Assembly (NCBI GenBank): GCA_963662795.1
Contig: OY759746.1
Location: forward strand, 3,424,001-3,488,000
Source of the DNA: Spirochaetia bacterium
GTDB taxonomy: Bacteria; Spirochaetota; Spirochaetia; CADAEX01
Direction: 5' to 3'
DNA: 64,000 bases
The translations under genes were made by a program, and so were the position numbers. Positions 921-20,619 of this stretch are shown one piece after another. The notes under the pieces are model-generated. The model was given only the letters and a program-made list of their open reading frames with translations, was not told the origin of the DNA and ran no database searches. The first letter of the stretch is position 1. Each line of letters opens with the position of its first letter.

Positions 921-2129
921 ATGTTTGATAACATAATTGGACACACCTCCGTTATGGAGCAGATGAAAAAAGAAATAAGCACTAATGCTTTTCCGCCCGC
1001 AGTTCTTTTATCAGGACCGCTATACACAGGAAAACAGACAATCGCACTTGAAACAGCCAGGGTCATAACCTGCAGCGAAAAAGCAAACTGGAATTGTAAA
1101 TGTGAATCATGCAGAATGAACCGTGTACTTTCCAATCCATCTATCCTTCTAATGGGATCTGATTTGTTCATACCTGAAATATCTACCGCAAAAAAACTGC
1201 TTGAGAGAAAAAGAGAGGCTGTAAGCTGCTTTCTTTTTATCAGGAGTGTGAGAAAGCTTCTAAGACGGTTTGATCCGGTTTTTACTGAGGAAAATGACAC
1301 TAAATATAAAAAAATATCTGCATTGGTTAATACAGTCCAGGATCTGTTAAATGATTTTGATCCTGAATATCTAAAGGGTGAAAATGTATTTGATATAGAT
1401 TTAAAAAAAGCTGATATAATCCTTGAGCATTGTAAAACAATAATCAAGGATTATAATTTCAGCAGCATACCTGTTGATCAGATACGCAAAGCTGTTTACT
1501 GGCTCAGGTTTTCCGGTTACAGCAGCAAAAAAGTCATTATTATTGAAAACGCTGAAAATATGAATGACAGTTCAAGAAACGCACTTCTTAAAATACTTGA
1601 AGAACCGCCGGGAAATACATTTTTTATCCTTCTTACAAGCCGTCCCGGAGAAATTATTCCTACAATCAAATCAAGGCTCCGCAAATATGAACTTGCAGGA
1701 AGGACAATCGCAGAAAATAAAATTGTCATTGAAAAAATATTCAGGGAGGAATCTGCAATTTTTACTGACCTGAAAAATTATCTGAATTCTTCAATACCTG
1801 AAATTGAAATAATTAAAAAAGCTGCAAAACAGTTTATATTTGATCTTTTTGATAATTCAAGAGAGGAAGAGGGAATAGGCCCTGAAGTCCGGAATATTTT
1901 AAAAGCGCAATATTCACAATATTTTCCTGAATTTCTTGAAGAACTTTCAAGGCTTTCTTCAGAGCTTTTAGGCAGCAGTGAATTTATTGATGATTCACCC
2001 GGCAGACTTTCTTTAATCAGCCATTTTGGGTATCTTATAAATGAAAGCTACAAAGGGTTTGACATATTAAATATAAATCACGAACTTCTGGCAGAATCAA
2101 TGTTTCTGGAGCTTAAAAAAAGAATATGA
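921..2129 (+). CDS. holB: DNA polymerase III clamp-loader delta' (HolB)-like subunit
   Basis: Walker A-like SGPLYTGKQT, Cys cluster CSEKANWNCKCESC, IIIENAENMNDSSRNALLKILEEPP, TIKSRL. Confidence 0.8.
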   Translation: MFDNIIGHTSVMEQMKKEISTNAFPPAVLLSGPLYTGKQTIALETARVITCSEKANWNCKCESCRMNRVLSNPSILLMGSDLFIPEISTAKKLLERKREAVSCFLFIRSVRKLLRRFDPVFTEENDTKYKKISALVNTVQDLLNDFDPEYLKGENVFDIDLKKADIILEHCKTIIKDYNFSSIPVDQIRKAVYWLRFSGYSSKKVIIIENAENMNDSSRNALLKILEEPPGNTFFILLTSRPGEIIPTIKSRLRKYELAGRTIAENKIVIEKIFREESAIFTDLKNYLNSSIPEIEIIKKAAKQFIFDLFDNSREEEGIGPEVRNILKAQYSQYFPEFLEELSRLSSELLGSSEFIDDSPGRLSLISHFGYLINESYKGFDILNINHELLAESMFLELKKRI

Positions 2130-3325
2130 GAAATTTCCTGAAGAAAGCAATCAAACGGATACCCCGACTGGATGTTAATCAGATCATAAAATTGGTAACA
2201 GTATTGTCAGATGAATATGAGCTTCTTGAAATAGTTCTTGATTCAATGACCACCGGAGTAATTGTAGCTGATAAAAGTGATAATCTGCTGTTTCTCAATA
2301 AAGCTGCCCACCGTATGCTGAATCTCTACACTCTGAATGAAAATGTCGAACGCAAAGTCTGGGAAGTAGTAAAGGATCCCTCAATCAATAATTTTCTTTG
2401 CAAATATCTTGCAGGGGAAGATGATACCAAGCCTGTAAGTATTTTTGTCGGTGCAAATGAGAGTGAGTCCAGGCTTCTTGAATTCAGAATCGTCCCACTG
2501 GTTAAAACAAATTCCATCATAGGCAATGTAGTCACAATAGAAGATGTTACAGACAAAAAAATAAAGGAATCAAAACTGAGGAGGGCGGAAAGTCTTGCAT
2601 CACTTACCACCCTTGCCGCAGGTGTCGCCCATGAAATAAAAAACCCTCTCGGCTCCATCAGCATCTATCTTCAGTTGATGGAAAAAACAATTTCCAGAAA
2701 CAGCGAGAACGATATCTGCAGCAGCATAAAGAACAATATTTCAGTCATCAAGGAAGAAGTGGAACGTCTTAATAAAATTGTTGTTGATTTTTTATTCGCG
2801 GTAAGACCAATTGATCTTGATTTAAATAATGAGAATTTAAATAAAATAATACTTGAAACGCTGGAACTGTTTACTCCGGAACTGGTAAAATCAGGAATTA
2901 TAGTCGATACAGATTTATGTCCAAAGATCCCTGACCTTAAACTTGATAAACGGTATATCAAACAGGTGCTTATAAATCTTATTAAAAATGCTGAACTGGC
3001 TATGAGCAAGGGCGGCAGTTTAACTATTACCACTGAGTGCAGGGATAACCAGGCAGTGCTCAAGGTAATTGATACAGGAACGGGAATACCGGATAATATA
3101 CTCTCGAGAATTTTTGAACCTTATTTTACTACAAGGGATTTCGGATCAGGAATTGGTCTTACTATTGTTTATAAGGTTGTTAAAGAACACAAAGGCGATA
3201 TTTCAATTAAAACGAAAGAAAATAAAGGAACTACCTTTATTATAACTTTTCCTCTGCCGCAGACAGAACAGAGACTTATAGAATATGAAGGGGACGGTGA
3301 TGAAATTCTCAATCCTGATAGCTGA
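2126..3325 (+). CDS. Cytoplasmic PAS-domain sensor histidine kinase (NtrB/Hk2-like)
   Basis: PAS-like N-terminus (VLDSMTTGVIVAD..FLNKAA), H-box AHEIKNPL, N-box NLIKNA, G1 DTGTGI, F FEPYFTT, G2 GSGIGL; no obvious TM helix. Confidence 0.92.
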   Translation: MRNFLKKAIKRIPRLDVNQIIKLVTVLSDEYELLEIVLDSMTTGVIVADKSDNLLFLNKAAHRMLNLYTLNENVERKVWEVVKDPSINNFLCKYLAGEDDTKPVSIFVGANESESRLLEFRIVPLVKTNSIIGNVVTIEDVTDKKIKESKLRRAESLASLTTLAAGVAHEIKNPLGSISIYLQLMEKTISRNSENDICSSIKNNISVIKEEVERLNKIVVDFLFAVRPIDLDLNNENLNKIILETLELFTPELVKSGIIVDTDLCPKIPDLKLDKRYIKQVLINLIKNAELAMSKGGSLTITTECRDNQAVLKVIDTGTGIPDNILSRIFEPYFTTRDFGSGIGLTIVYKVVKEHKGDISIKTKENKGTTFIITFPLPQTEQRLIEYEGDGDEILNPDS

Positions 3326-4655
3326 TGACGAAAAAAATATAAGAACAGGCCTTGGACAGGCTTTGAACGAAGAAGGCTATAGAACCTATCTCGCGGCGGA
3401 CGGAGCAGAAGCTTTTTCCATTTATTCGAAAAACAGTATTGATCTCGTAATAACAGATCTTAAAATGCCTGAAATCTCAGGAGAGGAACTCCTTAAAAAA
3501 ATTACCAATGAGAATAAAAACATACCTGTAATAATATTGACCGGACACGGTACTATTGAAAAAGCTGTTCAGACGATGAGGGACGGTGCCTATGATTTTA
3601 TAACAAAACCGCTCAATCTCGACCATCTTTATCTGATAATAAAAAGAGCTCTTTCCAACCGGGAACTTCAGATTCAGCACAAGGCGCTACAGGAAGAGGT
3701 TGAAAAAATAAAGAACAGGAGCAGATACCTTAATCTGGTAGGAAAAAGCAATTCCATGAAAAAAGTTGTAGAAACAATTGATCAGGTGGCAGCTACCAGG
3801 GCATCAGTTCTTATTACTGGTGAAAGCGGCGTTGGGAAGGAAGTAGTTGCAGATGTAATACATAATCTTTCAGACAGAAAGGATAAACCTTTTATTAAGG
3901 TTCATTGTGCAGCTTTATCCGAATCTCTTCTTGAAAGTGAACTTTTCGGACATGAAAAGGGTGCATTTACCGGGGCGATAGCGAAAAAAAGGGGCAGGTT
4001 TGAACTTGCCCATAACGGCACAATTTTTCTCGATGAAATCGGGGAGATAAATCAGTCTGTACAGATAAAACTTCTGCGTGTTCTTCAGGAAAGAACATTT
4101 GAGAGGGTCGGTGGAGAAGAAACTGTAAGTGTTGATGTCAGGATTATTTCTGCGACAAACAAGGATCTTGCAAAAGAAGTTGAAAAAGGCAATTTCAGGG
4201 AAGATCTTTATTACAGGTTAAATGTTGTAAATCTGCATATACCGCCGTTAAGGGAAAGGCAGGAGGATATTCCTCTGCTGATTGCGGTTTTCCTTAAAGA
4301 AATTACAGAAGAAAACGGTAAAAAAATTGACGGCATAGATACCAAAGCACAGGCCGCTCTTTACAACCACAAATGGAAAGGAAACATAAGAGAACTTAGA
4401 AACTGCATAGAAAGTTCTGTTGTAATGTCAAAAGGCAATATAATACTTTATGAAGATCTTCCTGTTTCAATTAAAGATGAATCAAACGATAATAATATAA
4501 TTATCAAGACAGGAACTCCGTTATCCGATGTAGAGCGTATTGTAATCAACAGCACCCTTAACATTCTTAAAGGCAATAAAAGCAAAACAGCCGAAGTTCT
4601 CGGTATAGGAAGAAAAACGCTTCACAGAAAGCTTAATGATTATAATATTGAATAA
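3300..4655 (+). CDS. Sigma54-dependent response regulator (REC-AAA+-Fis HTH; NtrC/Rrp2-like)
   Basis: ILIADDE and [10 protein letters not shown] receiver, GESGVGKE Walker A, GAFTGA loop, FLDEIGE Walker [29 protein letters not shown]. Start refined to ATG at 3300. Confidence 0.93.
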
Positions 4656-7753: not shown

Positions 7754-10159
7754 ATGCGCGCCAATGAAAGAATAACCGGGAATACTCTTGAAATTATAAG
7801 AAAAGCAATAAATGAAGCAGACGGCAATGAGGTCATGTTCTGCGGCAGACTTGATTCCAAAGGAATGATTGAGTCTGTCATTATCGCTGCAAGGGGCAAT
7901 GAAGAAGCAGTCCCCGCAATCGAGTCTTTTATTGAAAAAGGCGAGGTTGTAATCCACAACCATCCTGACAGCGTTTTAAAACCCAGCAATGCGGATTTGA
8001 GAATTGCTTCAATTCTTGGTTCCCAGGGAACAGGTTTTATAATAATCGATAATACCGCGGAAAATATATATGTAGTTGCAGAACCTCTTGTATCCAAAAA
8101 AAGAAAGAAAATAAGAACAGATAAACTCGCGGATAAAATTTCTCCGGACGGTGCGCTGTCAAAACTGTTTGAATATTATGAACCCAGGGATTCCCAGATA
8201 GAGATGCTTATATCTGTCGCGGAATGTTTTAATAGTGAGAACATGCTTATTGCGGAAGCAGGTACAGGAGTCGGCAAGTCTATTGCCTATCTGCTTCCTG
8301 CTTTTCAGCAGGTAATCAACAATGATGAAAGGGTGGTTATTTCCACCAACACAATCAATCTTCAGCATCAGCTGCTTGAGAAAGATATTCCGCTTGTTAA
8401 AAGTATTTTAAAAACTGATAAAAAAGCAGCCCTGATCAAGGGAAGGTCCAACTATCTCTGTTTAAGAAAATATTATGAATATATCAATGAAAATTCTCTT
8501 TTCAGAGACGGGGAAGATAAAGGAATCAGCCTTATAAGGGAATGGGCTTCTGTAACAGAGACAGGAGACAAGGCCGACCTGCCTGTTGTTCCTGATTATA
8601 CTGTCTGGAATGATATATGCTCTGAATCTGACTACTGTCTCGGGCTTTACTGTCAGTACAGGGAAAAATGTTTTGTGATAAAAGCACGAAAAAATGCATC
8701 ATCAGCTTCTATCCTTGTTGTTAACCATCATCTTCTTTTTTCTGACATGGCGGCAAGAAGTTCCGGAGCCGGTTTTAACGGAACAGCTGTGCTTCCCGCT
8801 TTCAGGCATGTTGTTTTTGATGAAGCGCATAATATTGAAACAGCTGCAACTTCATACTTTTCCATGATACTTTCAAAAGGATATATATTAAAAACCTTTA
8901 AAAAAATCTACAGCAGATACCGCGGCAAGGTTTCAGGACTATACCTTTTCCTTGAGGCCGGTACAATTCAGCATCAAACCAGGGTTGCTGAACTTCCGCA
9001 GATGATTTCAGATACACTCGGCTTATATGATCTGCTTGAGAGTGAAGCTGAGAAAAAAATAACAGAAAGACAAAATATTAAAATTGAAAAATCCCTTTTT
9101 TTTGATGATATATATTCAGCACTTTTTGCCTTTAAAAAAAACATGCTCAGGATATATAATCTGCTTGATGATATTTCACAGGATCTTGATATTTCACCGG
9201 ATGAAGATTCAAGGATATATGAGCTTGCCCTTATAAAAGGAAAAATTAAAGGATTGATCTCCACTGCTGAAATTATACTTGATGCAGATGAAGACTATGT
9301 TAGCTGGATAGAAAAAGGGAAAAGCACTGTTTTTACACTGACCCCGCTTGATGTAAGCAAGGTGCTGAGAGATACAGTCTATGAAAAAATCTGCAGTATA
9401 GTTTTTACATCCGCGACTTTAAGTATAAGGGAGTCCTTTGATTTCTGGAAAAAAAGAATAGGCCTTACTCTCCAGAACAGGGAAATTACTGAAAAAATAT
9501 TCAAGTCTCCTTTTGATTACAGAAAAAAGGTATTGCTCGCTGTCCCTACTGATATAAAAGATCCTTCTGATCCGTTATATACCAGCGAACTTTCAGCATT
9601 TGCCCTTAATATTATAAAAATATCTGAAGGTGGAGCTCTTCTTCTTTTTACATCTTATTCAATGCTTATGGATGTTTACAGCAGAATAAAGGATGATGTC
9701 ATAAATACAGGAATTACAATTCTGAGGCAGGGCGAGTTTGACAGATTCAGGATACAGAAAATATTCAATGAAGATAAAAAAAGTGTTCTCCTTGCAACAG
9801 ATTCATTCTGGGAGGGAATAGACAGTCCTGGTGAGACTTTAAAAATAGTTATTATCTGCCGGCTGCCCTTTAAAGTACCATCAGACCCTGTAATTCAGTC
9901 AAGACTTGAAAAAATTGAAAAAGAGGGCGGGAATCCATTTGCAGATTACTCACTCCCTGAAGCTGTTATAAGGCTGAGGCAGGGATTCGGACGGCTTATG
10001 AGGAGAAAAACTGATACAGGTATTGTTATTGTAACAGACAACAGAATAGTAAAAAAATCCTATGGACAGGTTTTTATTGCTTCACTGCCGGAAACTTCAA
10101 AATGTATAAGTGATATGGGGCAGATAGAAGAAAAAATTGAATCATTTCTTTACAGCTGA
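7754..10159 (+). CDS. DinG/YoaA-family Fe-S SF2 helicase with N-terminal JAB/MPN (RadC-like) domain
   Basis: Q-motif PRDSQ, EAGTGVGKS, KGRSNYLC plus Cys cluster, FDEAH, TSATL, SFWEGID, RQGFGRLMR; N-terminal E...HNHPDSVLKPSNAD. Confidence 0.88.
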   Translation: MRANERITGNTLEIIRKAINEADGNEVMFCGRLDSKGMIESVIIAARGNEEAVPAIESFIEKGEVVIHNHPDSVLKPSNADLRIASILGSQGTGFIIIDNTAENIYVVAEPLVSKKRKKIRTDKLADKISPDGALSKLFEYYEPRDSQIEMLISVAECFNSENMLIAEAGTGVGKSIAYLLPAFQQVINNDERVVISTNTINLQHQLLEKDIPLVKSILKTDKKAALIKGRSNYLCLRKYYEYINENSLFRDGEDKGISLIREWASVTETGDKADLPVVPDYTVWNDICSESDYCLGLYCQYREKCFVIKARKNASSASILVVNHHLLFSDMAARSSGAGFNGTAVLPAFRHVVFDEAHNIETAATSYFSMILSKGYILKTFKKIYSRYRGKVSGLYLFLEAGTIQHQTRVAELPQMISDTLGLYDLLESEAEKKITERQNIKIEKSLFFDDIYSALFAFKKNMLRIYNLLDDISQDLDISPDEDSRIYELALIKGKIKGLISTAEIILDADEDYVSWIEKGKSTVFTLTPLDVSKVLRDTVYEKICSIVFTSATLSIRESFDFWKKRIGLTLQNREITEKIFKSPFDYRKKVLLAVPTDIKDPSDPLYTSELSAFALNIIKISEGGALLLFTSYSMLMDVYSRIKDDVINTGITILRQGEFDRFRIQKIFNEDKKSVLLATDSFWEGIDSPGETLKIVIICRLPFKVPSDPVIQSRLEKIEKEGGNPFADYSLPEAVIRLRQGFGRLMRRKTDTGIVIVTDNRIVKKSYGQVFIASLPETSKCISDMGQIEEKIESFLYS

Positions 10160-10238: not shown

Positions 10239-10505
10239 TTATTCAACAATAGCAACAATATCTGCAGCTTTAACAATCAGATAGTCTACATTTTCGATTT
10301 TGATGGAAGTTCCGGCATATTTGTCATACATAATTTTCTGCCCGACTTTTACCTTGATTGCATCTTTATCATCGCCGATAGCGGAAACAACACCTGTCTG
10401 TGTTTTCTCCTGTGCAGTCTGCGGTATAAACAGGCCTCCTTTTGTTTTCTCTTCTGACTCCGTAATCTTAACTAACACCCTGTCGCCTAATGGTGTGATT
10501 TTCAT
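10239..10505 (-). CDS. groES: Co-chaperonin GroES
   Basis: ITPLGDRVLV, TKGGLFIP, KVGQKIMYDKYAGT; AGGAGG SD upstream. Confidence 0.95.
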   Translation of the reverse strand: MKITPLGDRVLVKITESEEKTKGGLFIPQTAQEKTQTGVVSAIGDDKDAIKVKVGQKIMYDKYAGTSIKIENVDYLIVKAADIVAIVE

Positions 10506-10567: not shown

Positions 10568-10596
10568 AATATACGAATCTTGTTAATAATGGTCAA
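10568..10596 (-). promoter_or_regulatory. Putative sigma70 promoter of groES
   Basis: Minus strand TTGACC-17 bp-TATATT. Confidence 0.55.
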
Positions 10597-10816
10597 GATA
10601 AATAATACCGCAGGATTTCTGTAAAATCTGTAAGATTTGAAATAATACTTCCTGATTTATTATAAATTGTGTCATAAGTAATCAGTATTAAGGATAAAAT
10701 TAATTAGTGCGTATTAATGACACATGAAGAAATCCGGTCATAATAATATATTTTTTAATTATTTAATAAATGCTTGTATTATAAGGAATTATTAAATATC
10801 GATTAAAAGTTCAGAT

Positions 10817-10832
10817 TGGCACACATATTGCA
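10817..10832 (+). promoter_or_regulatory. Sigma54 (-24/-12) promoter
   Basis: TGGCAC-ACATA-TTGCA matches the TGGCAC-N5-TTGC(A/T) consensus with exact GG-N10-GC spacing, 30 bp upstream of the sigma gene ATG. Confidence 0.8.
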
Positions 10833-10861
10833 AATATATAGTTGTTTGGGAGGTGCAATAT

Positions 10862-11734
10862 ATGTCAGCAACTATTACTAAAGTCAAAAAAGCAAAAAAA
10901 ACCGGTGATGAGAATACACTTTCGATCTATTTGAAAGAAATAAACAATATTCCTCTTTTATCAAGAGAAGATGAAGAAAAATATGCAAGGCTTGCTGCTT
11001 CAGGTGATAAAAGCGCAAGAGACATTCTTGTGAAGTCAAACCTCAGGTTTGTAGTAAATGTAGCAAAAAAATACAAAAATCAGGGCATTCCGCTTTCAGA
11101 TCTCATAAATGAAGGTAACATTGGTCTTCTTAATGCGGTTGAGAAATATGATGTAGACAGGGGATACCATTTCATATCTTATGCAGTCTGGTGGATTAAA
11201 CAGGCTATACTTAAAGCAATTGGTGAAAAATCCAGAATGATAAGACTGCCGCTTAACAGGGCAGGAGAGCTTGTGCAGATCGAAAGACTTAAAAAGGAAT
11301 ATATTGCATTAAACGGCAGTGATCCTGATCTCAGGGATATTGCTTCAGATTTAAGTCTTACAGAAGAACATGTAAGGGAGATGATAAATATTTCCCGCGA
11401 ACATATATCAATTGATACACCTGTTTCATCAGGTGAAAGAGATTCTGCCAAAATATCTGATTACATTGAAGATACACGCTACAAACAGCCTGATGAATTT
11501 ATAATTGACAGATCACTTAAAGAAGAGATAAATAAACTTCTTGCCACATTATCCGGTAAAGAAGCAGATATAATTGAACAGCGGTTTGGCCTTAACGGTG
11601 AGACTCCACAGTCGTTAAAGGAAATTGGCGACAGATTCAATCTTACAAAAGAAAGAATCAGGCAGATAGAAAAAAAAGCTCTTGAAAGACTGAAACACGT
11701 TTCAAGAAAGCAGTATCTTGAAGCCTATATTTAA
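10862..11734 (+). CDS. Sigma70-family RNA polymerase sigma factor lacking region 1.1 (RpoD/RpoS-like alternative sigma)
   Basis: Region 1.2 IYLKEINNIPLLSREDE; region 2 NLRFVVNVAKKY..DLINEGNIGL..SYAVWWIKQAI; region 4 SLKEIGDRFNLTKERIRQIE; GGGAGG SD 8 nt before ATG 10862. Confidence 0.92.
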   Translation: MSATITKVKKAKKTGDENTLSIYLKEINNIPLLSREDEEKYARLAASGDKSARDILVKSNLRFVVNVAKKYKNQGIPLSDLINEGNIGLLNAVEKYDVDRGYHFISYAVWWIKQAILKAIGEKSRMIRLPLNRAGELVQIERLKKEYIALNGSDPDLRDIASDLSLTEEHVREMINISREHISIDTPVSSGERDSAKISDYIEDTRYKQPDEFIIDRSLKEEINKLLATLSGKEADIIEQRFGLNGETPQSLKEIGDRFNLTKERIRQIEKKALERLKHVSRKQYLEAYI

Positions 11735-11917: not shown

Positions 11918-14578
11918 ATGTCTATGGAAAAATTTGTTTACTTTTTTGGTGGCGGAACATCAGACGGTAAAGCTGAAATGAAACAGCTGCTTGGCGGTAA
12001 AGGCGCTAATCTTGCAGAAATGACTAATATGGGAATTCCGGTTCCTCCCGGTTTTACAATTTCAACAGAGGTCTGTAAAGTTTATTATGAAAACAATAAA
12101 ACCTATCCTGAAGTTGTCAGAAAACAGGTAAAAGAAAACCTTGAAAAACTAGAAAAACTTCAGGGTAAAAAACTTGGCGATCCTTCTGATCCCCTGCTGG
12201 TATCAGTAAGGTCAGGCGCAGCTGTTTCCATGCCTGGAATGATGGACACAATCCTTAACCTTGGACTTAATGACAAGGCAGTAGAGCAGCTTGCTGTAAA
12301 AACTGGGAATCCAAGGTTTGCATGGGATGCTTACAGACGTTTTATTCAGATGTTCGGTGATGTCGCAATGGGTGTTCCTCATCATGATTTTGAAGCTATT
12401 CTTGAATCTGTAAAAAAAGAGAAAGGTGTCGAAAATGATATCGAGCTTACAGCAGATGATTTCAAGAAAGTCGTAAAACTATATAAAGAAGCTTACAAAA
12501 ATTTTTTAAAGGAAGATTTTCCCCAGGATCCCATGGTTCAGCTTTGGGCAGCGATAGATGCGGTTTTCGGCTCATGGAATAACACAAGAGCTATAAAATA
12601 CAGGGCCATTAACGGCATTGTTGGTCTGCTGGGAACTGCTGTAAACGTACAGACTATGGTTTTCGGTAACTACGGGGATACTTCAGGCACAGGCGTTTGT
12701 TTTTCAAGAGACCCTTCAACAGGTGAAAATTATTTCTACGGCGAATATCTCATGAATGCTCAGGGAGAAGATGTCGTAGCAGGTATAAGAACTCCTGAAA
12801 CATTGAAATCGCTTGAAAAAGAAAATCCTGAGATGTACAGGCAGCTTGTTGGTTTCAAGGAAAAACTTGAAAATCATTTCAAGGATATGCAGGATATAGA
12901 ATTTACGATTCAGCAGGGTGTTCTTTATATACTTCAGACAAGAAACGCTAAAAGAACAGGTCCTGCAGCTATCCGCTGCGCTGTAGAAATGGTTTCTGAA
13001 GGTATGATCAGCAAAGAGACAGCTGTAAAGAGGGTAACACCCGAGCAGCTTGATCAGCTTCTCCATCCGATGATTGACCCCAAATTGAAAAAAACACTTA
13101 AAGTTCTTACAAAAGGACTTAACGCTTCCCCAGGCGCTGCCTGCGGACAGGTAGTATTTACTGCAGATGAGGCAGAACACTGGGCAAAAGATGGCAAAAA
13201 AGTACTTCTTGTAAGAAAAGAGACATCACCGGAAGATATCGGCGGTATGGTTGTTGCCCAGGGTATTCTTACATCAACAGGAGGTATGACAAGTCATGCA
13301 GCTGTTGTTGCCAGAGGAATGGGGACACCTTGTGTTGCCGGCTGTAAAGATCTTTCAATTACCGGAAAATCAATCAAGGTAAAAGGACTTGAAATCAAGG
13401 AAGGCGATTATATTACCATCGACGGTTCAACAGGAGAAGTTTTCAACGGTAAAATTGATCTTGCAAAACCGAAATTCGACGACAGACTGACAAAATTCCT
13501 CACATGGGCAGATGAAATCAGATGGTCTGCGGAAAGAAAAGGCCTTCCAAAAGGTTTTCTCGTCAGGACCAATGCAGACCAGCCGCATGATGCAGTAATT
13601 GCAAGAGAATTCGGCGCGGAAGGTATCGGACTCTGCAGAACTGAACACATGTTCTTTGACGCGGAAAAGCTTGAAATATTTCAGCAGATGATTGTTGCTG
13701 AAGATGTGGAAACAAGGAAAAACGTACTTAAAAAACTTATTGTTCTTCAGCAGAAAGACTTTGAAGGTATTTTTGAAGCAATGAACGGCCTTCCTGTTAC
13801 AATCAGGCTTCTTGATCCGCCGCTTCATGAGTTTGTGCCTAAAACACCGGAAGATACAAAAGCTCTTGCAGGTAAAATCGGTATTCCTGTAGAAAAACTT
13901 CAGTCAAAGATTGATTCGCTTCATGAACTCAATCCGATGCTTGGCCACCGCGGCTGCCGTCTGGGTGTAACATATCCTGAAATATATGATATGCAGGTTG
14001 AAGCAATCATGAGAGCTGCATGTGAGCAGACAAAGAAGGGCGTAAAAGTAATTCCTGAGATTATGATACCTCTTATCGGAACATATCAGGAATTGAAGAT
14101 GCTCAGGTTAAATGCTGAGAAAGTAATTGCATCTGTATTTGAAACCATGAAGATGAAGGTCGATCATAAAATAGGTACAATGATTGAAATACCGAGAGCT
14201 GCTATTACAGCGGATGAAGTTGCAAAATATGCTGATTTCTTTTCCTTCGGTACAAACGACCTGACACAGATGACCTATGGTTATTCAAGAGATGATATCG
14301 GCTCCTTCCTGCCTGATTATATTGAGAAGGGAGTTCTTGAAAGAGACCCGTTCCAGGCTATTGATCAGAATGGTGTAGGTGTACTTGTAAAAATGGCTGC
14401 TGATAAATCAAGAGCCATTAAGCCCGATATCAAACTTGGTATCTGCGGCGAACATGGAGGAGAATCCTCTTCAATAGAATTCTGCTACAGAACAGGACTT
14501 AATTATGTTTCATGTTCTCCCTACAGGGTTCCTCTTGCAAGACTCTCTGCAGCTCAGGCCGTACTTAAAAATAAGTAA
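11918..14578 (+). CDS. ppdK: Pyruvate, phosphate dikinase
   Basis: LGGKGANLAEM, SVRSGAAVSMPGMMDT, phospho-His motif GGMTSHAAVVARG, GIGLCRTEHMF, SFGTNDLTQ, GICGEHGG. Confidence 0.97.
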   Translation: MSMEKFVYFFGGGTSDGKAEMKQLLGGKGANLAEMTNMGIPVPPGFTISTEVCKVYYENNKTYPEVVRKQVKENLEKLEKLQGKKLGDPSDPLLVSVRSGAAVSMPGMMDTILNLGLNDKAVEQLAVKTGNPRFAWDAYRRFIQMFGDVAMGVPHHDFEAILESVKKEKGVENDIELTADDFKKVVKLYKEAYKNFLKEDFPQDPMVQLWAAIDAVFGSWNNTRAIKYRAINGIVGLLGTAVNVQTMVFGNYGDTSGTGVCFSRDPSTGENYFYGEYLMNAQGEDVVAGIRTPETLKSLEKENPEMYRQLVGFKEKLENHFKDMQDIEFTIQQGVLYILQTRNAKRTGPAAIRCAVEMVSEGMISKETAVKRVTPEQLDQLLHPMIDPKLKKTLKVLTKGLNASPGAACGQVVFTADEAEHWAKDGKKVLLVRKETSPEDIGGMVVAQGILTSTGGMTSHAAVVARGMGTPCVAGCKDLSITGKSIKVKGLEIKEGDYITIDGSTGEVFNGKIDLAKPKFDDRLTKFLTWADEIRWSAERKGLPKGFLVRTNADQPHDAVIAREFGAEGIGLCRTEHMFFDAEKLEIFQQMIVAEDVETRKNVLKKLIVLQQKDFEGIFEAMNGLPVTIRLLDPPLHEFVPKTPEDTKALAGKIGIPVEKLQSKIDSLHELNPMLGHRGCRLGVTYPEIYDMQVEAIMRAACEQTKKGVKVIPEIMIPLIGTYQELKMLRLNAEKVIASVFETMKMKVDHKIGTMIEIPRAAITADEVAKYADFFSFGTNDLTQMTYGYSRDDIGSFLPDYIEKGVLERDPFQAIDQNGVGVLVKMAADKSRAIKPDIKLGICGEHGGESSSIEFCYRTGLNYVSCSPYRVPLARLSAAQAVLKNK

Positions 14579-15740: not shown

Positions 15741-16400
15741 CTAAAAAGTTCCATAGTCTATATAGCCAAGCCATACCGGCTTGCTGTAAATATTGTATAC
15801 CCTGTCGTATTTACCGTATGAAAAAACAAATAATGAAAGTGTAACATCCGCAACCGGCACATCAGAATCACTTTCAGACATATCATCATATATAAATGAT
15901 TTATAATAATCAGTATCAGCCGGATCTGTAACTACCCTGTATAATTTCGTATTATTATAATCAACTGTGGGTATTGTATCAGAAGCTATGTAAGTAAAAT
16001 CAATATTTATCACAAAACTTTCATCCCTGTCATTATAATCTATGGGTATCATAGGATAAGGAGTTTTTGAATCAGTATTATTTACAGTATTTATTCTTTT
16101 AAACCCAAGATTCGCCAGGTCCGACGGCTCAGGTTCCTCAACTGAAAAAAGATTATTATAATCAGCTGCGTTTTCAGCCTTGAAATTAGCCTTATTATAA
16201 AATTTATAATAAAGCTCATACCCCTGAAAAACATCAGAATCATTATCGCTGCGGTTATAAATCTTTATATTACCGGAAGAACCAGTTAAGGCAGATACTT
16301 CGGGTGCATAAATATATGGATAATCATTAAGCCCGCAACCCTGAATAAGGAAGAAAAATAATGCGGGCAAAAAGATAATAATTCTGTTAAGGGGTATCAT
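15741..16400 (-). CDS. Putative lipoprotein
   Basis: Signal peptide ending FFFLIQG-C (lipobox); start refined to ATG 16400, overlapping the cyclase stop. Confidence 0.7.
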   Translation of the reverse strand: MIPLNRIIIFLPALFFFLIQGCGLNDYPYIYAPEVSALTGSSGNIKIYNRSDNDSDVFQGYELYYKFYNKANFKAENAADYNNLFSVEEPEPSDLANLGFKRINTVNNTDSKTPYPMIPIDYNDRDESFVINIDFTYIASDTIPTVDYNNTKLYRVVTDPADTDYYKSFIYDDMSESDSDVPVADVTLSLFVFSYGKYDRVYNIYSKPVWLGYIDYGTF

Positions 16401-18783
16401 AACCTCCCTTGATATCAAGAAGCTCATAAATCAATACCGGTTTATTTTTTCCTTTTACCCTTATATTGTCAAGTTCTCTGACTATTACTTTATCCTTTAC
16501 AAGAGGATAAGTAAATTCGCTTATAATTATCTGTGTAGCATACTGCTTGTTGGTTCCTTCAAGACGCGCCCCGAGGTTGACGTTATCGCCCATAAGCGTA
16601 TAATTCATCCTTCCAAGAGAGCCCATGTTCCCGACAGTCATTACCCCTGAATTCAGACCGATACCGATGTTGATTCTCTTTTCAGGCGGCCAGCCTTCAT
16701 TGAGTTTGCGGAGTGCCTCCATCTGCTTTAAGGCGCATTTGCAGGCAAGAAGCGCATGGTCTTCCTGGGGAAGCGGAGCGCCCCAGAAACACATTATTTC
16801 ATCGCCTACATACTTATCAAGAGTACCCCTGAATTCAAGTATAATATCTGTCATGGAAGTAAGATATATATTTAAATGGTTGACAAGTTCCTGGGGAGTC
16901 ATTGTTTCTGATAAAGTTGTAAATCCCCTGATATCTGAAAAAAATACAGTAAGGTTTTTATCCACTCCTCCCAGCTCCGGAGGATTTTCAAGAATCTGAT
17001 CAACAACAGCGGGGCTTACATATCTTCCAAACATGTTTTTTATCCGTTTCTTGTCTTTTTCCTCAGTCATTACCCTGTATACAACGATGGAAAGAAATGT
17101 AAAAAACACACCGATTGCAGAAGGCGCAAAATCAACAATATAATTCATGGAATCAAAAATAATGCTTGTTGAGATAAAAAACACAAGAACAGAAAAAATG
17201 GAAAAAACCGCAGCCCAGAGTGTTGAAAGTCTTGAGGTTAAAAAAGCTGTGCACATTACAAGAAAAAATAAAATTGAAATATTTATCCAGGACGGAACTT
17301 CTTTAAGGAATTTATTCATCAGGATTGTATTAAGTGCGTTGGCGTGGATTTCAACACCATACATCAGTCCATAGGGAGTTGTTTTTTCATCTGCTGCTAT
17401 ACCTCTTGCAAACGGACCTGTCATCAGTATTTTGTTTGCCACCGCCATGGTTTTGGGCCATGTAGAAGAATCAAACGGCGGGGACTTTGCCGCATAACCT
17501 GAATACGATCTTATTGGATATGTCTGATGTCCGCCTGGATCAGCAGTAGAGGGATTTCCCATGAAATTTATCAGCATCTGTCCATTTTCATCAATGGGAA
17601 TTATAACTTCTTCAAGTACTTTTTTTATTTCAGGTTTTATTATGGCACCATCTTTGCTGTATTTTGCAGGTTTTTCAACCACCTGATAAGGGACCCATTC
17701 CTGCTTTTCCAAATCAAAATATTGAGGTGAAGGTATTTTGATGTATTCTCCGATTCTGACTTCTATATCCTCAGGTTTTTTGTTGAAGTACTCAAGGGCA
17801 AGAGACAATGTTATGGCAGGGACAAACGTATCTTTATATTTTTTTACAGTATAAAAATAAACTTCCTCCCCTCCTGTCGTAAGAGCTTTAACCGGAGGTG
17901 AATTTTTTATAACAGTCTCTTTTAATTCTGATATCCGTTCTTCCGTCAGCGGATATTGTATCGGATGATCCTTGCCGTTAATATCTGTCCATCCCAGTCT
18001 TTCAAATATTGTCTCATCAATTTTATAATCAGTTGTTATATCATCAATATTTATAACATCAACCAAAATCGACGATTTCGATATCATACCCTGTCTGCGG
18101 TATATCTTGTCAAAATCTTCCTTGAAATTGGCATGACCATAACCCTTGCTTACCCTGGCAAGCGGCTGAAGAGGAGGCTGGAGACCTGAATAGGAAGTGA
18201 CATTGTGCCAGTTTCCTTTTACATTTTTAATCCTGCCGTAGGTATTGTAAAGTATTTCCTGTCTGCCGATATAATCCTCTGCTATAGCTTCTGATGGAGG
18301 AACTTCATCAAGTACAGTCTCAAGAAAGACCCGCCCGCTCTCCTTAATTGCCTCAACAAGAAGGGCATCATCATAAGCCTTGCTGGTATCCGGCTCAATA
18401 AAAAAAACGTCTATAAACAGCGCCCGTTCCCTTTCTTCCTGATTTTTAATTCGTGAAAAGGTTTTTACCAGATCAGCGTGCCGATACCTGGGAAACGGCC
18501 ATTTGCCGAATTTATTAAGGCTTCTGAAATCAATCCCGACTATAAGTATGTCAGGTGATATATTGGGATTTTGTATTGATTGAGTAACACCTTCCTGAAT
18601 ATAGGTTTTCTGTGAAATATTTTTAAGATAAAAGTTTACATCAATCATTTTGAGTTTTAATTTATTTGTGATATCTGTAAAGTTTTCAGCGAATAGAATC
18701 AGCGAAAATATTAAAACAGCAATTAACATTCCGAAGTATTTGGTCTGCATTAAAAATTTTGCGCTGAATGCTTTTTTACCCAT
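16387..18783 (-). CDS. CHASE2-domain class III adenylate/guanylate cyclase
   Basis: N-terminal TM; CHASE2 motifs (IVGID..SLNKFGKWPFPR, TTPYGLMYGVEIHANALNTIL); three TMs; catalytic FSDIRGFT, DKYVGD, NYTLMGDNVNLGARLEG, VKGK. Confidence 0.92.
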   Translation of the reverse strand: MGKKAFSAKFLMQTKYFGMLIAVLIFSLILFAENFTDITNKLKLKMIDVNFYLKNISQKTYIQEGVTQSIQNPNISPDILIVGIDFRSLNKFGKWPFPRYRHADLVKTFSRIKNQEERERALFIDVFFIEPDTSKAYDDALLVEAIKESGRVFLETVLDEVPPSEAIAEDYIGRQEILYNTYGRIKNVKGNWHNVTSYSGLQPPLQPLARVSKGYGHANFKEDFDKIYRRQGMISKSSILVDVINIDDITTDYKIDETIFERLGWTDINGKDHPIQYPLTEERISELKETVIKNSPPVKALTTGGEEVYFYTVKKYKDTFVPAITLSLALEYFNKKPEDIEVRIGEYIKIPSPQYFDLEKQEWVPYQVVEKPAKYSKDGAIIKPEIKKVLEEVIIPIDENGQMLINFMGNPSTADPGGHQTYPIRSYSGYAAKSPPFDSSTWPKTMAVANKILMTGPFARGIAADEKTTPYGLMYGVEIHANALNTILMNKFLKEVPSWINISILFFLVMCTAFLTSRLSTLWAAVFSIFSVLVFFISTSIIFDSMNYIVDFAPSAIGVFFTFLSIVVYRVMTEEKDKKRIKNMFGRYVSPAVVDQILENPPELGGVDKNLTVFFSDIRGFTTLSETMTPQELVNHLNIYLTSMTDIILEFRGTLDKYVGDEIMCFWGAPLPQEDHALLACKCALKQMEALRKLNEGWPPEKRINIGIGLNSGVMTVGNMGSLGRMNYTLMGDNVNLGARLEGTNKQYATQIIISEFTYPLVKDKVIVRELDNIRVKGKNKPVLIYELLDIKGGYDTP

Positions 18784-19665: not shown

Positions 19666-20619
19666 TTACTCCTTGATTTCTTCTTTAATTTCCAGCTCTT
19701 TAATCAATCTGGATAAATATGTTCTTTGAATACCAAGTACAGAAGATGTTCTGCTCCGGTTCCATTCATTTGCCTTAAGAGCTTTTATTATATAGTTTTT
19801 TTTGAATTTGTTGATAGCCGTTTTCAGCGGTAAAATAATATTTTTTCCATAATTTTTAAATTCAATATCTTCCGGTTTTATCGTTTTCCCTTTCATTGTT
19901 ACTGAAAGACGTTTTATATAGTTTTCAAGTTCCCTTACGTTGCCGGGCCAGTCATAAGAGTATAATTTTTCCATCGCACTACTGCTAAAAACAATTCCCC
20001 CGCTCATGCGGCCGGAAAAATAATCGATGAGCTGAGGAATATCATCCTTTCTGTTTTTAAGTTCGGGAATATGAAGAAGAAGAACATTGAGCCTGTAATA
20101 TAGATCTTTTCTGAAATTACCTGCTGCAACTTCAGCTTCTATATCCTTGTTTGTCGCGGATATTATCCGTATATCAATTTTAACCGGATTTTCAGAACCA
20201 AGCTGATCCACCGTGCTGTTTTCAATTACACGCAACAGTCTGGATTGGGTATTAAGAGGCAGTTCTGTAATTTCATCAAGAAAAACTGTACCGGTATCTG
20301 CCGCGATAAATTTACCTTTTCTGTATGAAGAAGCATCGGTAAATGCACCTTTAAGATGGCCGAAAAGCTCACTTTCAATCAGAGATTCAGGTATTGCGGC
20401 ACAATTAATTTTTACAAAAGGTTTTCCGGACCTCAGACTGTTTTTATAAATAAGATCTGCAAAAAGTTCCTTGCCTGTACCGCTGTCTCCGGTTATAAGA
20501 ACAGGGGCATCAGACGAGGCAATTTTAAATGCAAAATTCCTGCAATCCTTGATAAGACTGCAGGAACCTATTATTTTGTCTGAATAATCTTGTGGTAAGT
20601 TATCTGTCTTGTTTTTCAC
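19666..20619 (-). CDS. Sigma54-dependent activator (AAA+ and HTH) without an N-terminal sensory domain
   Basis: [59 protein letters not shown]; only ~15 aa precede the AAA+ domain. Confidence 0.88.
   Translation of the reverse strand: MKNKTDNLPQDYSDKIIGSCSLIKDCRNFAFKIASSDAPVLITGDSGTGKELFADLIYKNSLRSGKPFVKINCAAIPESLIESELFGHLKGAFTDASSYRKGKFIAADTGTVFLDEITELPLNTQSRLLRVIENSTVDQLGSENPVKIDIRIISATNKDIEAEVAAGNFRKDLYYRLNVLLLHIPELKNRKDDIPQLIDYFSGRMSGGIVFSSSAMEKLYSYDWPGNVRELENYIKRLSVTMKGKTIKPEDIEFKNYGKNIILPLKTAINKFKKNYIIKALKANEWNRSRTSSVLGIQRTYLSRLIKELEIKEEIKE

Follow-up and report, generated by a model that had tools for sequence, protein, structure and literature searches.

A conserved sigma54-type promoter and candidate enhancer upstream of a short sigma factor gene in Spirochaetia

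The sigma locus and its promoter box

The window, that is, the whole 64-kb stretch of DNA that was analysed, carries a gene for a group-2-like sigma70-family factor of 290 amino acids, which runs on the plus strand from an ATG at 10862 to 11734 and belongs to a conserved spirochaete clade. Upstream of it lies TGGCAC-ACATA-TTGCA (TGGCACACATATTGCA; 10817-10832, plus strand), with its GG at 10818-19 and its GC at 10830-31, followed by a GGGAGG Shine-Dalgarno (SD) sequence at 10848-10853 (+). This GG-N10-GC arrangement has the spacing and orientation of a sigma54 -24/-12 promoter, and C(-12) at 10831 places the predicted transcription start near 10843, in agreement with the earlier estimate. Pfam recognizes sigma regions 1.2, 2, 3 and 4 above cut-off and no region 1.1; just 22 residues lie N-terminal to the region-1.2 motif. 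The -24/-12 element, the SD and a factor of about 290 residues lacking region 1.1, as described in the original prediction, are thus all found (10817-11734). A weak terminator-like hairpin (11699-11724, +) falls within the final codons of the sigma gene, and no Rfam family matches within the window.

The exact motif TGGCAC-N5-TTGCW occurs twice in the 64-kb window against a shuffle mean of 0.07, and two copies were reached by one of 100 shuffles. The other copy, TGGCAC-N5-TTGCT at 17643-17658 (+), lies antisense within a CHASE2 adenylate or guanylate cyclase gene (16387-18783, minus strand). It scores 11.9 bits versus 21.7 bits for the box at 10817, no enhancer pair of the kind described below was found near it, and it is probably a chance match.

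The protein closest to the 290-residue sigma is 98% identical and comes from a Spirochaetales MAG; the window also encodes the long GreA that is a hallmark of spirochaetes. Three of the genes originally cited to set this genome apart from the reduced Borrelia genome, lysC, folK and ppdK, pass their NCBIfam cut-offs. The two genes read as lptFG are LptF/G-like and score below the cut-offs, and Borrelia has genes similar to LptF/G, so this pair is a weak argument against Borrelia. No rpoN was found among the 51 open reading frames scanned in the window; in a published table, all 15 Spirochaetota genomes carry it.

GTDB genomes were scanned with a 39-sequence alignment, which confirmed at least 577 relatives, and the best 80 of these at least 577 (60-76% identity) were used for comparison. 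All 80 are metagenome assemblies, with some near-duplicate pairs among them, and going by the record titles the hosts are mostly environmental spirochaetes. These titles include Spirochaetaceae, Sediminispirochaeta, Marispirochaeta, Salinispira, Alkalispirochaeta and Oceanispirochaeta, as well as Treponemataceae, Treponema sp. and Rectinemataceae. Two loci were dropped because a contig end lay too near the gene, which leaves 78 untruncated loci.

Upstream of the sigma gene, TGGCAY-N5-TTGC is present with at most one mismatch in all 78 of these loci (58 perfect, 20 with one mismatch), versus no perfect and 83 one-mismatch boxes among 10388 control tiles (220 nt each) taken from these loci. The ten core positions of the box have a pairwise identity of 0.91, compared with 0.30 for the spacer and upstream flank, which indicates that the motif, not the region, is conserved. 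The distance from C(-12) to the start codon is 22-48 nt in 75/78 loci, with a mode of 23-24 nt (33/78); the remaining three comprise one miscalled start and two genes without an ATG call. In the commonest arrangement the SD begins at about +1 or +2 of the predicted transcript. It therefore sits just inside the message, as expected if the box makes the sigma mRNA. Before other open reading frames at these loci, sigma54 boxes are scattered (7/1346). Retention of the box by orthologues had been set in advance as a test of the original prediction, and the box is lost from none of the 78. Taken together, it is very probable that sigma54 transcribes the 290-residue sigma gene from the box at 10817-10832.

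The neighbourhood is conserved as well, with groES near the sigma gene in 59, ppdK in 60 and dinG in 52 of the best 80 relatives. In the window, groES (10239-10505, minus strand) is the divergent neighbour, a synteny marker and a possible target of the sigma. It stands alone, with no groEL adjoining, and has its own conserved sigma70-type promoter at 10568-10596 (-), in which TTGACC starts at 10596 and TATATT extends to 10568. The pattern cTTGAC(C/G)...gTATATT recurs before groES, with CTTGAC in 42/48 and TATATT in 46/48 loci, while a CIRCE element was found before groES in 0/48. This promoter is unlike the TTGACA-type motif of ppdK (11918-14578, +), the downstream neighbour and second synteny marker. 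It could be read by the short sigma or by RpoD and is a candidate promoter class for the former. The DinG/YoaA-like helicase (7754-10159, +) has an extra N-terminal stretch of about 120 residues without a Pfam match, whose HNHP motif we take to be JAB/RadC-like. In 50/80 relatives the gene directly upstream of sigma encodes an uncharacterised protein of about 220 residues whose N-terminus is TPR-like and whose C-terminal part carries a SEC-C motif (for example 1080-1766, plus strand, at locus L075). This gene often ends at the distal dyad described below, and no trace of it was found in the window.

Tandem dyads and an AT-rich element

Enriched words upstream of the box resolve into a 17-bp dyad, TG(G/T)GTCA-WWW-TGAC(C/A)CA, which occurs twice in the window and forms a candidate enhancer. 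The distal copy (TGTGTCATAAGTAATCA; 10668-10684) scores 11.2 bits, and 10.3 and 11.5 bits with half-trained matrices from which the window was left out. The proximal copy (TGCGTATTAATGACACA; 10708-10724), 40 bp away, has the top dyad score in the window at 14.3 bits. With spacing left unconstrained, the dyads are exactly 40 bp apart in 53 of the 58 sequences with two sites, out of 79 sequences including the window. Among the 78 loci from the best-80 set, 67 have a pair at 40 or 41 bp above threshold versus none of 3371 control tiles, and nine other spacings yield 0-5 loci each. The pair threshold of 20 is missed by 11 loci, four of them narrowly (18.4-19.9). The first matrix had been trained on the loci tested, so the search was repeated on held-out halves, where the two best sites lie 40 or 41 bp apart in 31/39 and again 31/39 loci. 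Although the end of the SEC-C gene can overlap the pair, 22 of the 25 loci without that gene have it too, which argues that the pair is not a coding artefact. Elsewhere in the window, including the regions before the kinase-regulator pair and the second activator discussed below, just one weak extra pair was found, at 8130 in dinG. Judged by its distance, the pair would suit an upstream activator site, for which about 80-150 bp from the promoter is expected.

Between the dyads and the box lies an AT-rich quasi-symmetric element, TAA-N4-TT...AA-N4-TTA, at 10767-10791. It exceeds 8 bits in 65/78 sequences, 13 missing this threshold, compared with 2% of shuffles, and in most cases it lies 44-54 nt before the box. 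Judged by the IHF consensus, its shape and location make it a candidate bending site of the IHF/Hbb type. Binding of such a protein at 10767-10791 is on balance the favoured reading.

The layout varies within the set. The loci from Treponemataceae and Rectinemataceae (L048, L049, L059, L062, L066-L068, L075 and L076) have a weaker pair that is about 100 nt more distant, some 150-280 nt from the box, and most of them have a weak AT-rich element. This arrangement is possibly a step towards looser enhancer dependence.

Neither the dyad pair nor the AT-rich site figured in the original prediction. Together with the box, and with spacing and conservation that are read directly from the DNA, they compose a complete canonical sigma54 promoter layout. 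The conserved box, the enhancer pair and the IHF-like site lend strong support to the original proposal that sigma54 drives a sigma factor gene outside Borrelia.

The sigma factor and two candidate activators

The presence of regions 1.2, 2, 3 and 4 without region 1.1 makes the sigma group-2-like, in the sense of the definition given in PMC6719511. It scores 266 against the NCBIfam RpoS model TIGR02394 (cut-off 378.7) and 254.7 against the RpoD model TIGR02393 (cut-off 354). A FastTree phylogeny was built from 165 of 169 sequences (four dropped for short coverage), including 20 of 81 spirochaete loci but no Borrelia or named Treponema tips, and rooted on Pseudomonas RpoS. It places the sigma in an 85-member short-sigma clade whose sister group is formed by the short SigA proteins of Bacteroidota and Gemmatimonadota (support 0.947), with the RpoD-like group standing separately; an Atlas search agrees with this placement. 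The core clade is surrounded by a large radiation of short sigma70 proteins (P0125-P0270), at 85 of the 165 tips, which suggests that many short-sigma paralogues exist.

Residues of regions 2.4-3.0 set the sigma apart, with L117, K118, N132 and G/N135 where RpoD has T, R, H and E. Position 135 is G in the window sigma and N, G or A in 23/23 core members, neither the lysine equivalent to K173 of RpoS nor the glutamate of the RpoD E458 type being found there; R133 is invariant in the clade. Two assignments can thus be rejected. Gammaproteobacterial RpoS has the group-2 domain make-up in common with the sigma, which falls under the TIGR02394 cut-off, lacks the K173-type lysine and stands separate in the tree. 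A primary sigma of the RpoD type (group 1) is opposed by the missing region 1.1, the score under the TIGR02393 cut-off and the absence of E135. The closest relationship is to the short RpoD/SigA of Bacteroidota and Gemmatimonadota, of about 287 residues, likewise without region 1.1, with a common region-2 signature and forming the sister clade. The best matches in the plasmid collection are of this type and 42-43% identical. The Bacteroidota protein, which is the primary sigma of its phylum, differs from the spirochaete sigma at K118, position 135 and K263.

The original prediction named two candidate activators nearby, and both exist. The first is a receiver-AAA+-HTH enhancer-binding protein of the AtoC/ZraR class (3285-4655, +) with an intact GAFTGA motif, preceded by a PAS-HisKA-HATPase sensor kinase (2126-3325, +) whose PAS_8 match is barely above cut-off and which is also found upstream of the response regulator in relatives. 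They lie in a cvpA-holB-kinase-regulator run that corresponds to the hk2-rrp2 arrangement. We call them Hk2/Hpk2-like and Rrp2-like on our reading of domain make-up and gene order rather than from an alignment to the Borrelia proteins. GAFTGA or GSFTGA is found in 21/22 Rrp2 orthologues from the best-80 set, with one truncated, and the gene lies within 10 kb upstream of sigma in 23 of the 50 loci that have at least 9 kb of upstream DNA. The second candidate (19666-20619, minus strand) consists of AAA+ and HTH domains only, with GAFTDA and the helix GIQRTYLSRLI. It follows rpsA, and its 28 closest homologues have 317-349 residues, GAFTDA or GSFTDA and no sensory domain; it is possibly constitutive or regulated by a partner.

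A proposed relay, its alternatives and related systems

In the proposed mechanism, the PAS kinase (2126-3325) would determine how far the Rrp2-like activator (3285-4655) is phosphorylated. Two activator dimers would occupy the tandem dyads, which lie about 110 and 150 bp upstream of the box, and would oligomerise there. With the DNA bent at 10767-10791 by a protein of the IHF/Hbb type, the GAFTGA loop of the activator would open the closed complex formed with sigma54 at 10817-10832. The resulting mRNA, starting at about 10843 and with a short leader, would encode the 290-residue sigma, which would redirect RNA polymerase to a second promoter set, most likely a general stress regulon. That a two-tier sigma cascade of this form is conserved across Spirochaetia is held with good confidence, while control of a stress regulon by the sigma is put at even chances. 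The original prediction presented the cascade as a system of this genome; the probable sigma54-driven sigma gene is not peculiar to it, being common to the Spirochaetia sampled.

The best-surviving alternative, which falls slightly short of even, accepts the cascade but denies its homology to that of Borrelia: RpoS would be a different paralogue, sigma54 control would have been gained independently, and the likeness would reflect convergence. The gene contexts differ, Borrelia rpoS reportedly following flgI-flgJ (PMC1976401) and the window-type sigma gene following groES or the SEC-C gene. According to the same source, Borrelia Rrp2 did not bind the upstream DNA and rpoS needs no enhancer. There Rrp2 acts enhancer-free and BosR is needed, whereas conserved tandem dyads and an IHF-like site lie at the window locus; on sequence grounds, the enhancer independence of Borrelia does not appear to extend to it. 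The origin of Borrelia RpoS is described as disputed, and a published tree groups it broadly with proteobacterial homologues (PMC6719511). No Borrelia protein is named among the best 120 homologues of the sigma, and no Borrelia RpoS turned up among profile representatives, plasmid and phage collections or solved structures. Against these differences stands what the two systems have in common: the PAS kinase gene hk2 directly upstream of the NtrC-type rrp2, a group-2-like sigma70 gene immediately preceded by a -24/-12 promoter (PMC1976401, PMC7649798, PMC6719511), and the domain make-up. Furthermore, the reported K122 of Borrelia RpoS lies 43 residues after the conserved I79, where the sigma clade has R in 23/23 core members and RpoD-like proteins have K or R in 0/53. 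This argument is weak, since it assumes no indel and since the feature is also seen in the Bacteroidota-type clade (17/23). Common ancestry of the window-type and Borrelia cascades is put at even chances.

It is unlikely that the sigma, instead of being a switchable stress factor, is produced under most conditions as a second sigma of housekeeping-like type. Such a role would fit its sister clade with the short Bacteroidota SigA (support 0.947) and its strong conservation (60-76% over the best 80 of at least 577 genomes), but the sigma54 promoter and enhancer imply signal-gated expression, and the sigma lacks the RpoD residues of regions 2.4-3.0. The treponemes bear on both sides. TP1012 of Treponema pallidum, a 35-kDa sigma numbered beside groES (TP1013), is listed with other abundant proteins in a published table (PMC5015957). 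In T. denticola, tde0937 is reported to be induced by heat (2.8-fold), oxygen (21.8-fold) and osmotic downshift (14-fold), unlike the other sigma70 gene, tde1346, and a role as global stress regulator was proposed for it (PMC2965109). The gene tde0937 lies three locus numbers from groES, and the peptides encoded by its published primers, GDEDAK and QGLPLM, match two motifs of the sigma family. This neighbourhood and the two hexapeptides mark TDE0937 as a probable counterpart, and TDE0937 and TP1012 are probably orthologues of the window sigma. RpoS homologues are said to be missing in T. denticola (PMC2965109), and Rrp2 was called unstudied in that species in 2025 (PMC12070737). The passages of these two papers that were available link tde0937 to neither sigma54 nor Rrp2. 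Autophosphorylation of T. denticola Hpk2 reportedly rises without oxygen (PMC12070737), whereas tde0937 rises with it, which opposes a simple kinase-on model; Borrelia Hk2, for its part, is described as dispensable and able to act as a phosphatase (PMC7649798).

The two candidate activators, whose domain make-up is directly observed, are not equal as the original prediction had left them. Applied to E. coli zraP-zraSR, the spirochaete dyad matrix picks out two sites (14.5 and 12.2 bits; next best -3.6), both between the divergent -24/-12 boxes of zraP and zraS. The recognition helix of ZraR reads GITRKTL, that of the window Rrp2 GIGRKTL and that of the second activator GIQRTY. A GIGRKTL-type helix is in register in 16/21 Rrp2 orthologues and in shifted register in four more, and xIQRTY is found in 120/120 homologues of the second activator. 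The matrix sites and the ZraR-like helix make the Rrp2-like protein the likeliest activator. Because many proteins of the NtrC family have an RKTL helix, this feature can tell the two activators of the window apart but cannot set the Rrp2-like protein against activators encoded elsewhere in the genome, and it favours the Rrp2-like protein without amounting to proof.

A sigma54-dependent promoter served instead by the 19666-20619 protein, by another activator elsewhere in the genome or by several together is improbable. The second activator belongs to a family that is conserved in spirochaetes and whose more distant members are mostly GAF-bearing, of about 502 residues; the short form has no regulatory domain and could be constitutive. 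Its GAFTDA does not exclude function, because the functional activator FlgR has the same motif (PMC3162934). Its xIQRTY helix, however, is unlike the ZraR-type helix that accompanies the dyad. It is also no conserved neighbour of sigma within 10 kb, since its tblastn matches in the best-80 loci all overlap the Rrp2 gene. Activation of the sigma promoter by the Rrp2-like protein (3285-4655) is thus likely. Finally, it is very improbable that the box matches by chance or survives here as a relic, with the sigma gene read from a sigma70-type promoter: a sigma70-like match (10/12) at 10717-10744 (+) and the lack of rpoN among the window ORFs speak for it, but that match overlaps the proximal dyad, the sigma70 scan gives five sites where 9.4 are expected by chance, and the box, dyads and AT-rich element are all intact in the window, with an intact GAFTGA activator nearby.

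The Rrp2-RpoN-sigma relay may, in a joint reading that is tentative and rated somewhat below an even chance, be ancestral to Spirochaetia. Its full form, with 40-bp enhancer, IHF/Hbb site and box, would have been kept by free-living spirochaetes and treponemes, switching on a stress sigma with kinship to the SigA of Bacteroidota. The RpoS of Borrelia would be a diverged orthologue, its enhancer lost and its control rewired for host switching, and TDE0937 and TP1012 would be unrecognised counterparts and direct Rrp2 targets. The RpoN-RpoS cascade has been studied as a Borrelia virulence switch; if the present reading is true, the circuit is older than tick-borne life. The conserved promoter and candidate activator site suggest that two-step gene switching of the Lyme bacterium type reaches much further across the spirochaetes. 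For spirochaete Rrp2, a concrete target gene and binding motif are hereby proposed, whereas no such site was found at Borrelia rpoS. The treponemal targets of Rrp2 and RpoN, the DNA recognised by Rrp2 and the origin of Borrelia RpoS become testable.

In the open full-text literature, outside which subscription papers and older genome scans mostly lie, no description of a promoter and enhancer of this kind beyond Borrelia was found. For B. burgdorferi and T. pallidum, sigma54 sites were reportedly predicted in the genome scans of Studholme and Buck (2000), which may have noted the T. pallidum box; the box alone may thus have been predicted before for a treponeme. The breadth of the box across Spirochaetia and the 40-bp enhancer look undescribed so far.

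Several known systems resemble parts of the relay. Other sigma54-to-sigma links (FliA, sigma32) likewise have sigma genes behind sigma54 promoters: COG1191 and COG0568 genes in general (PMC12316311) and the sigma32 gene (PMC3162934). The passages available from these two papers name no spirochaetes for COG0568 and no such gene or enhancer. The T. denticola Hpk2-Rrp2 pair (TDE1970/TDE1969) matches the window in joining a PAS kinase to a predicted sigma54 activator, and both T. denticola and T. pallidum have a sigma70-family gene near groES. The ZraSR system of E. coli is comparable in its AtoC/ZraR-class activator (44% identical between ZraR and the window Rrp2), its similar helix and its two dyads that match one matrix. 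It differs in that the zraP-zraS dyads are 31 bp apart, not 40, and that its targets are envelope or metal-stress genes, in contrast to the sigma factor gene controlled by the proposed spirochaete relay.
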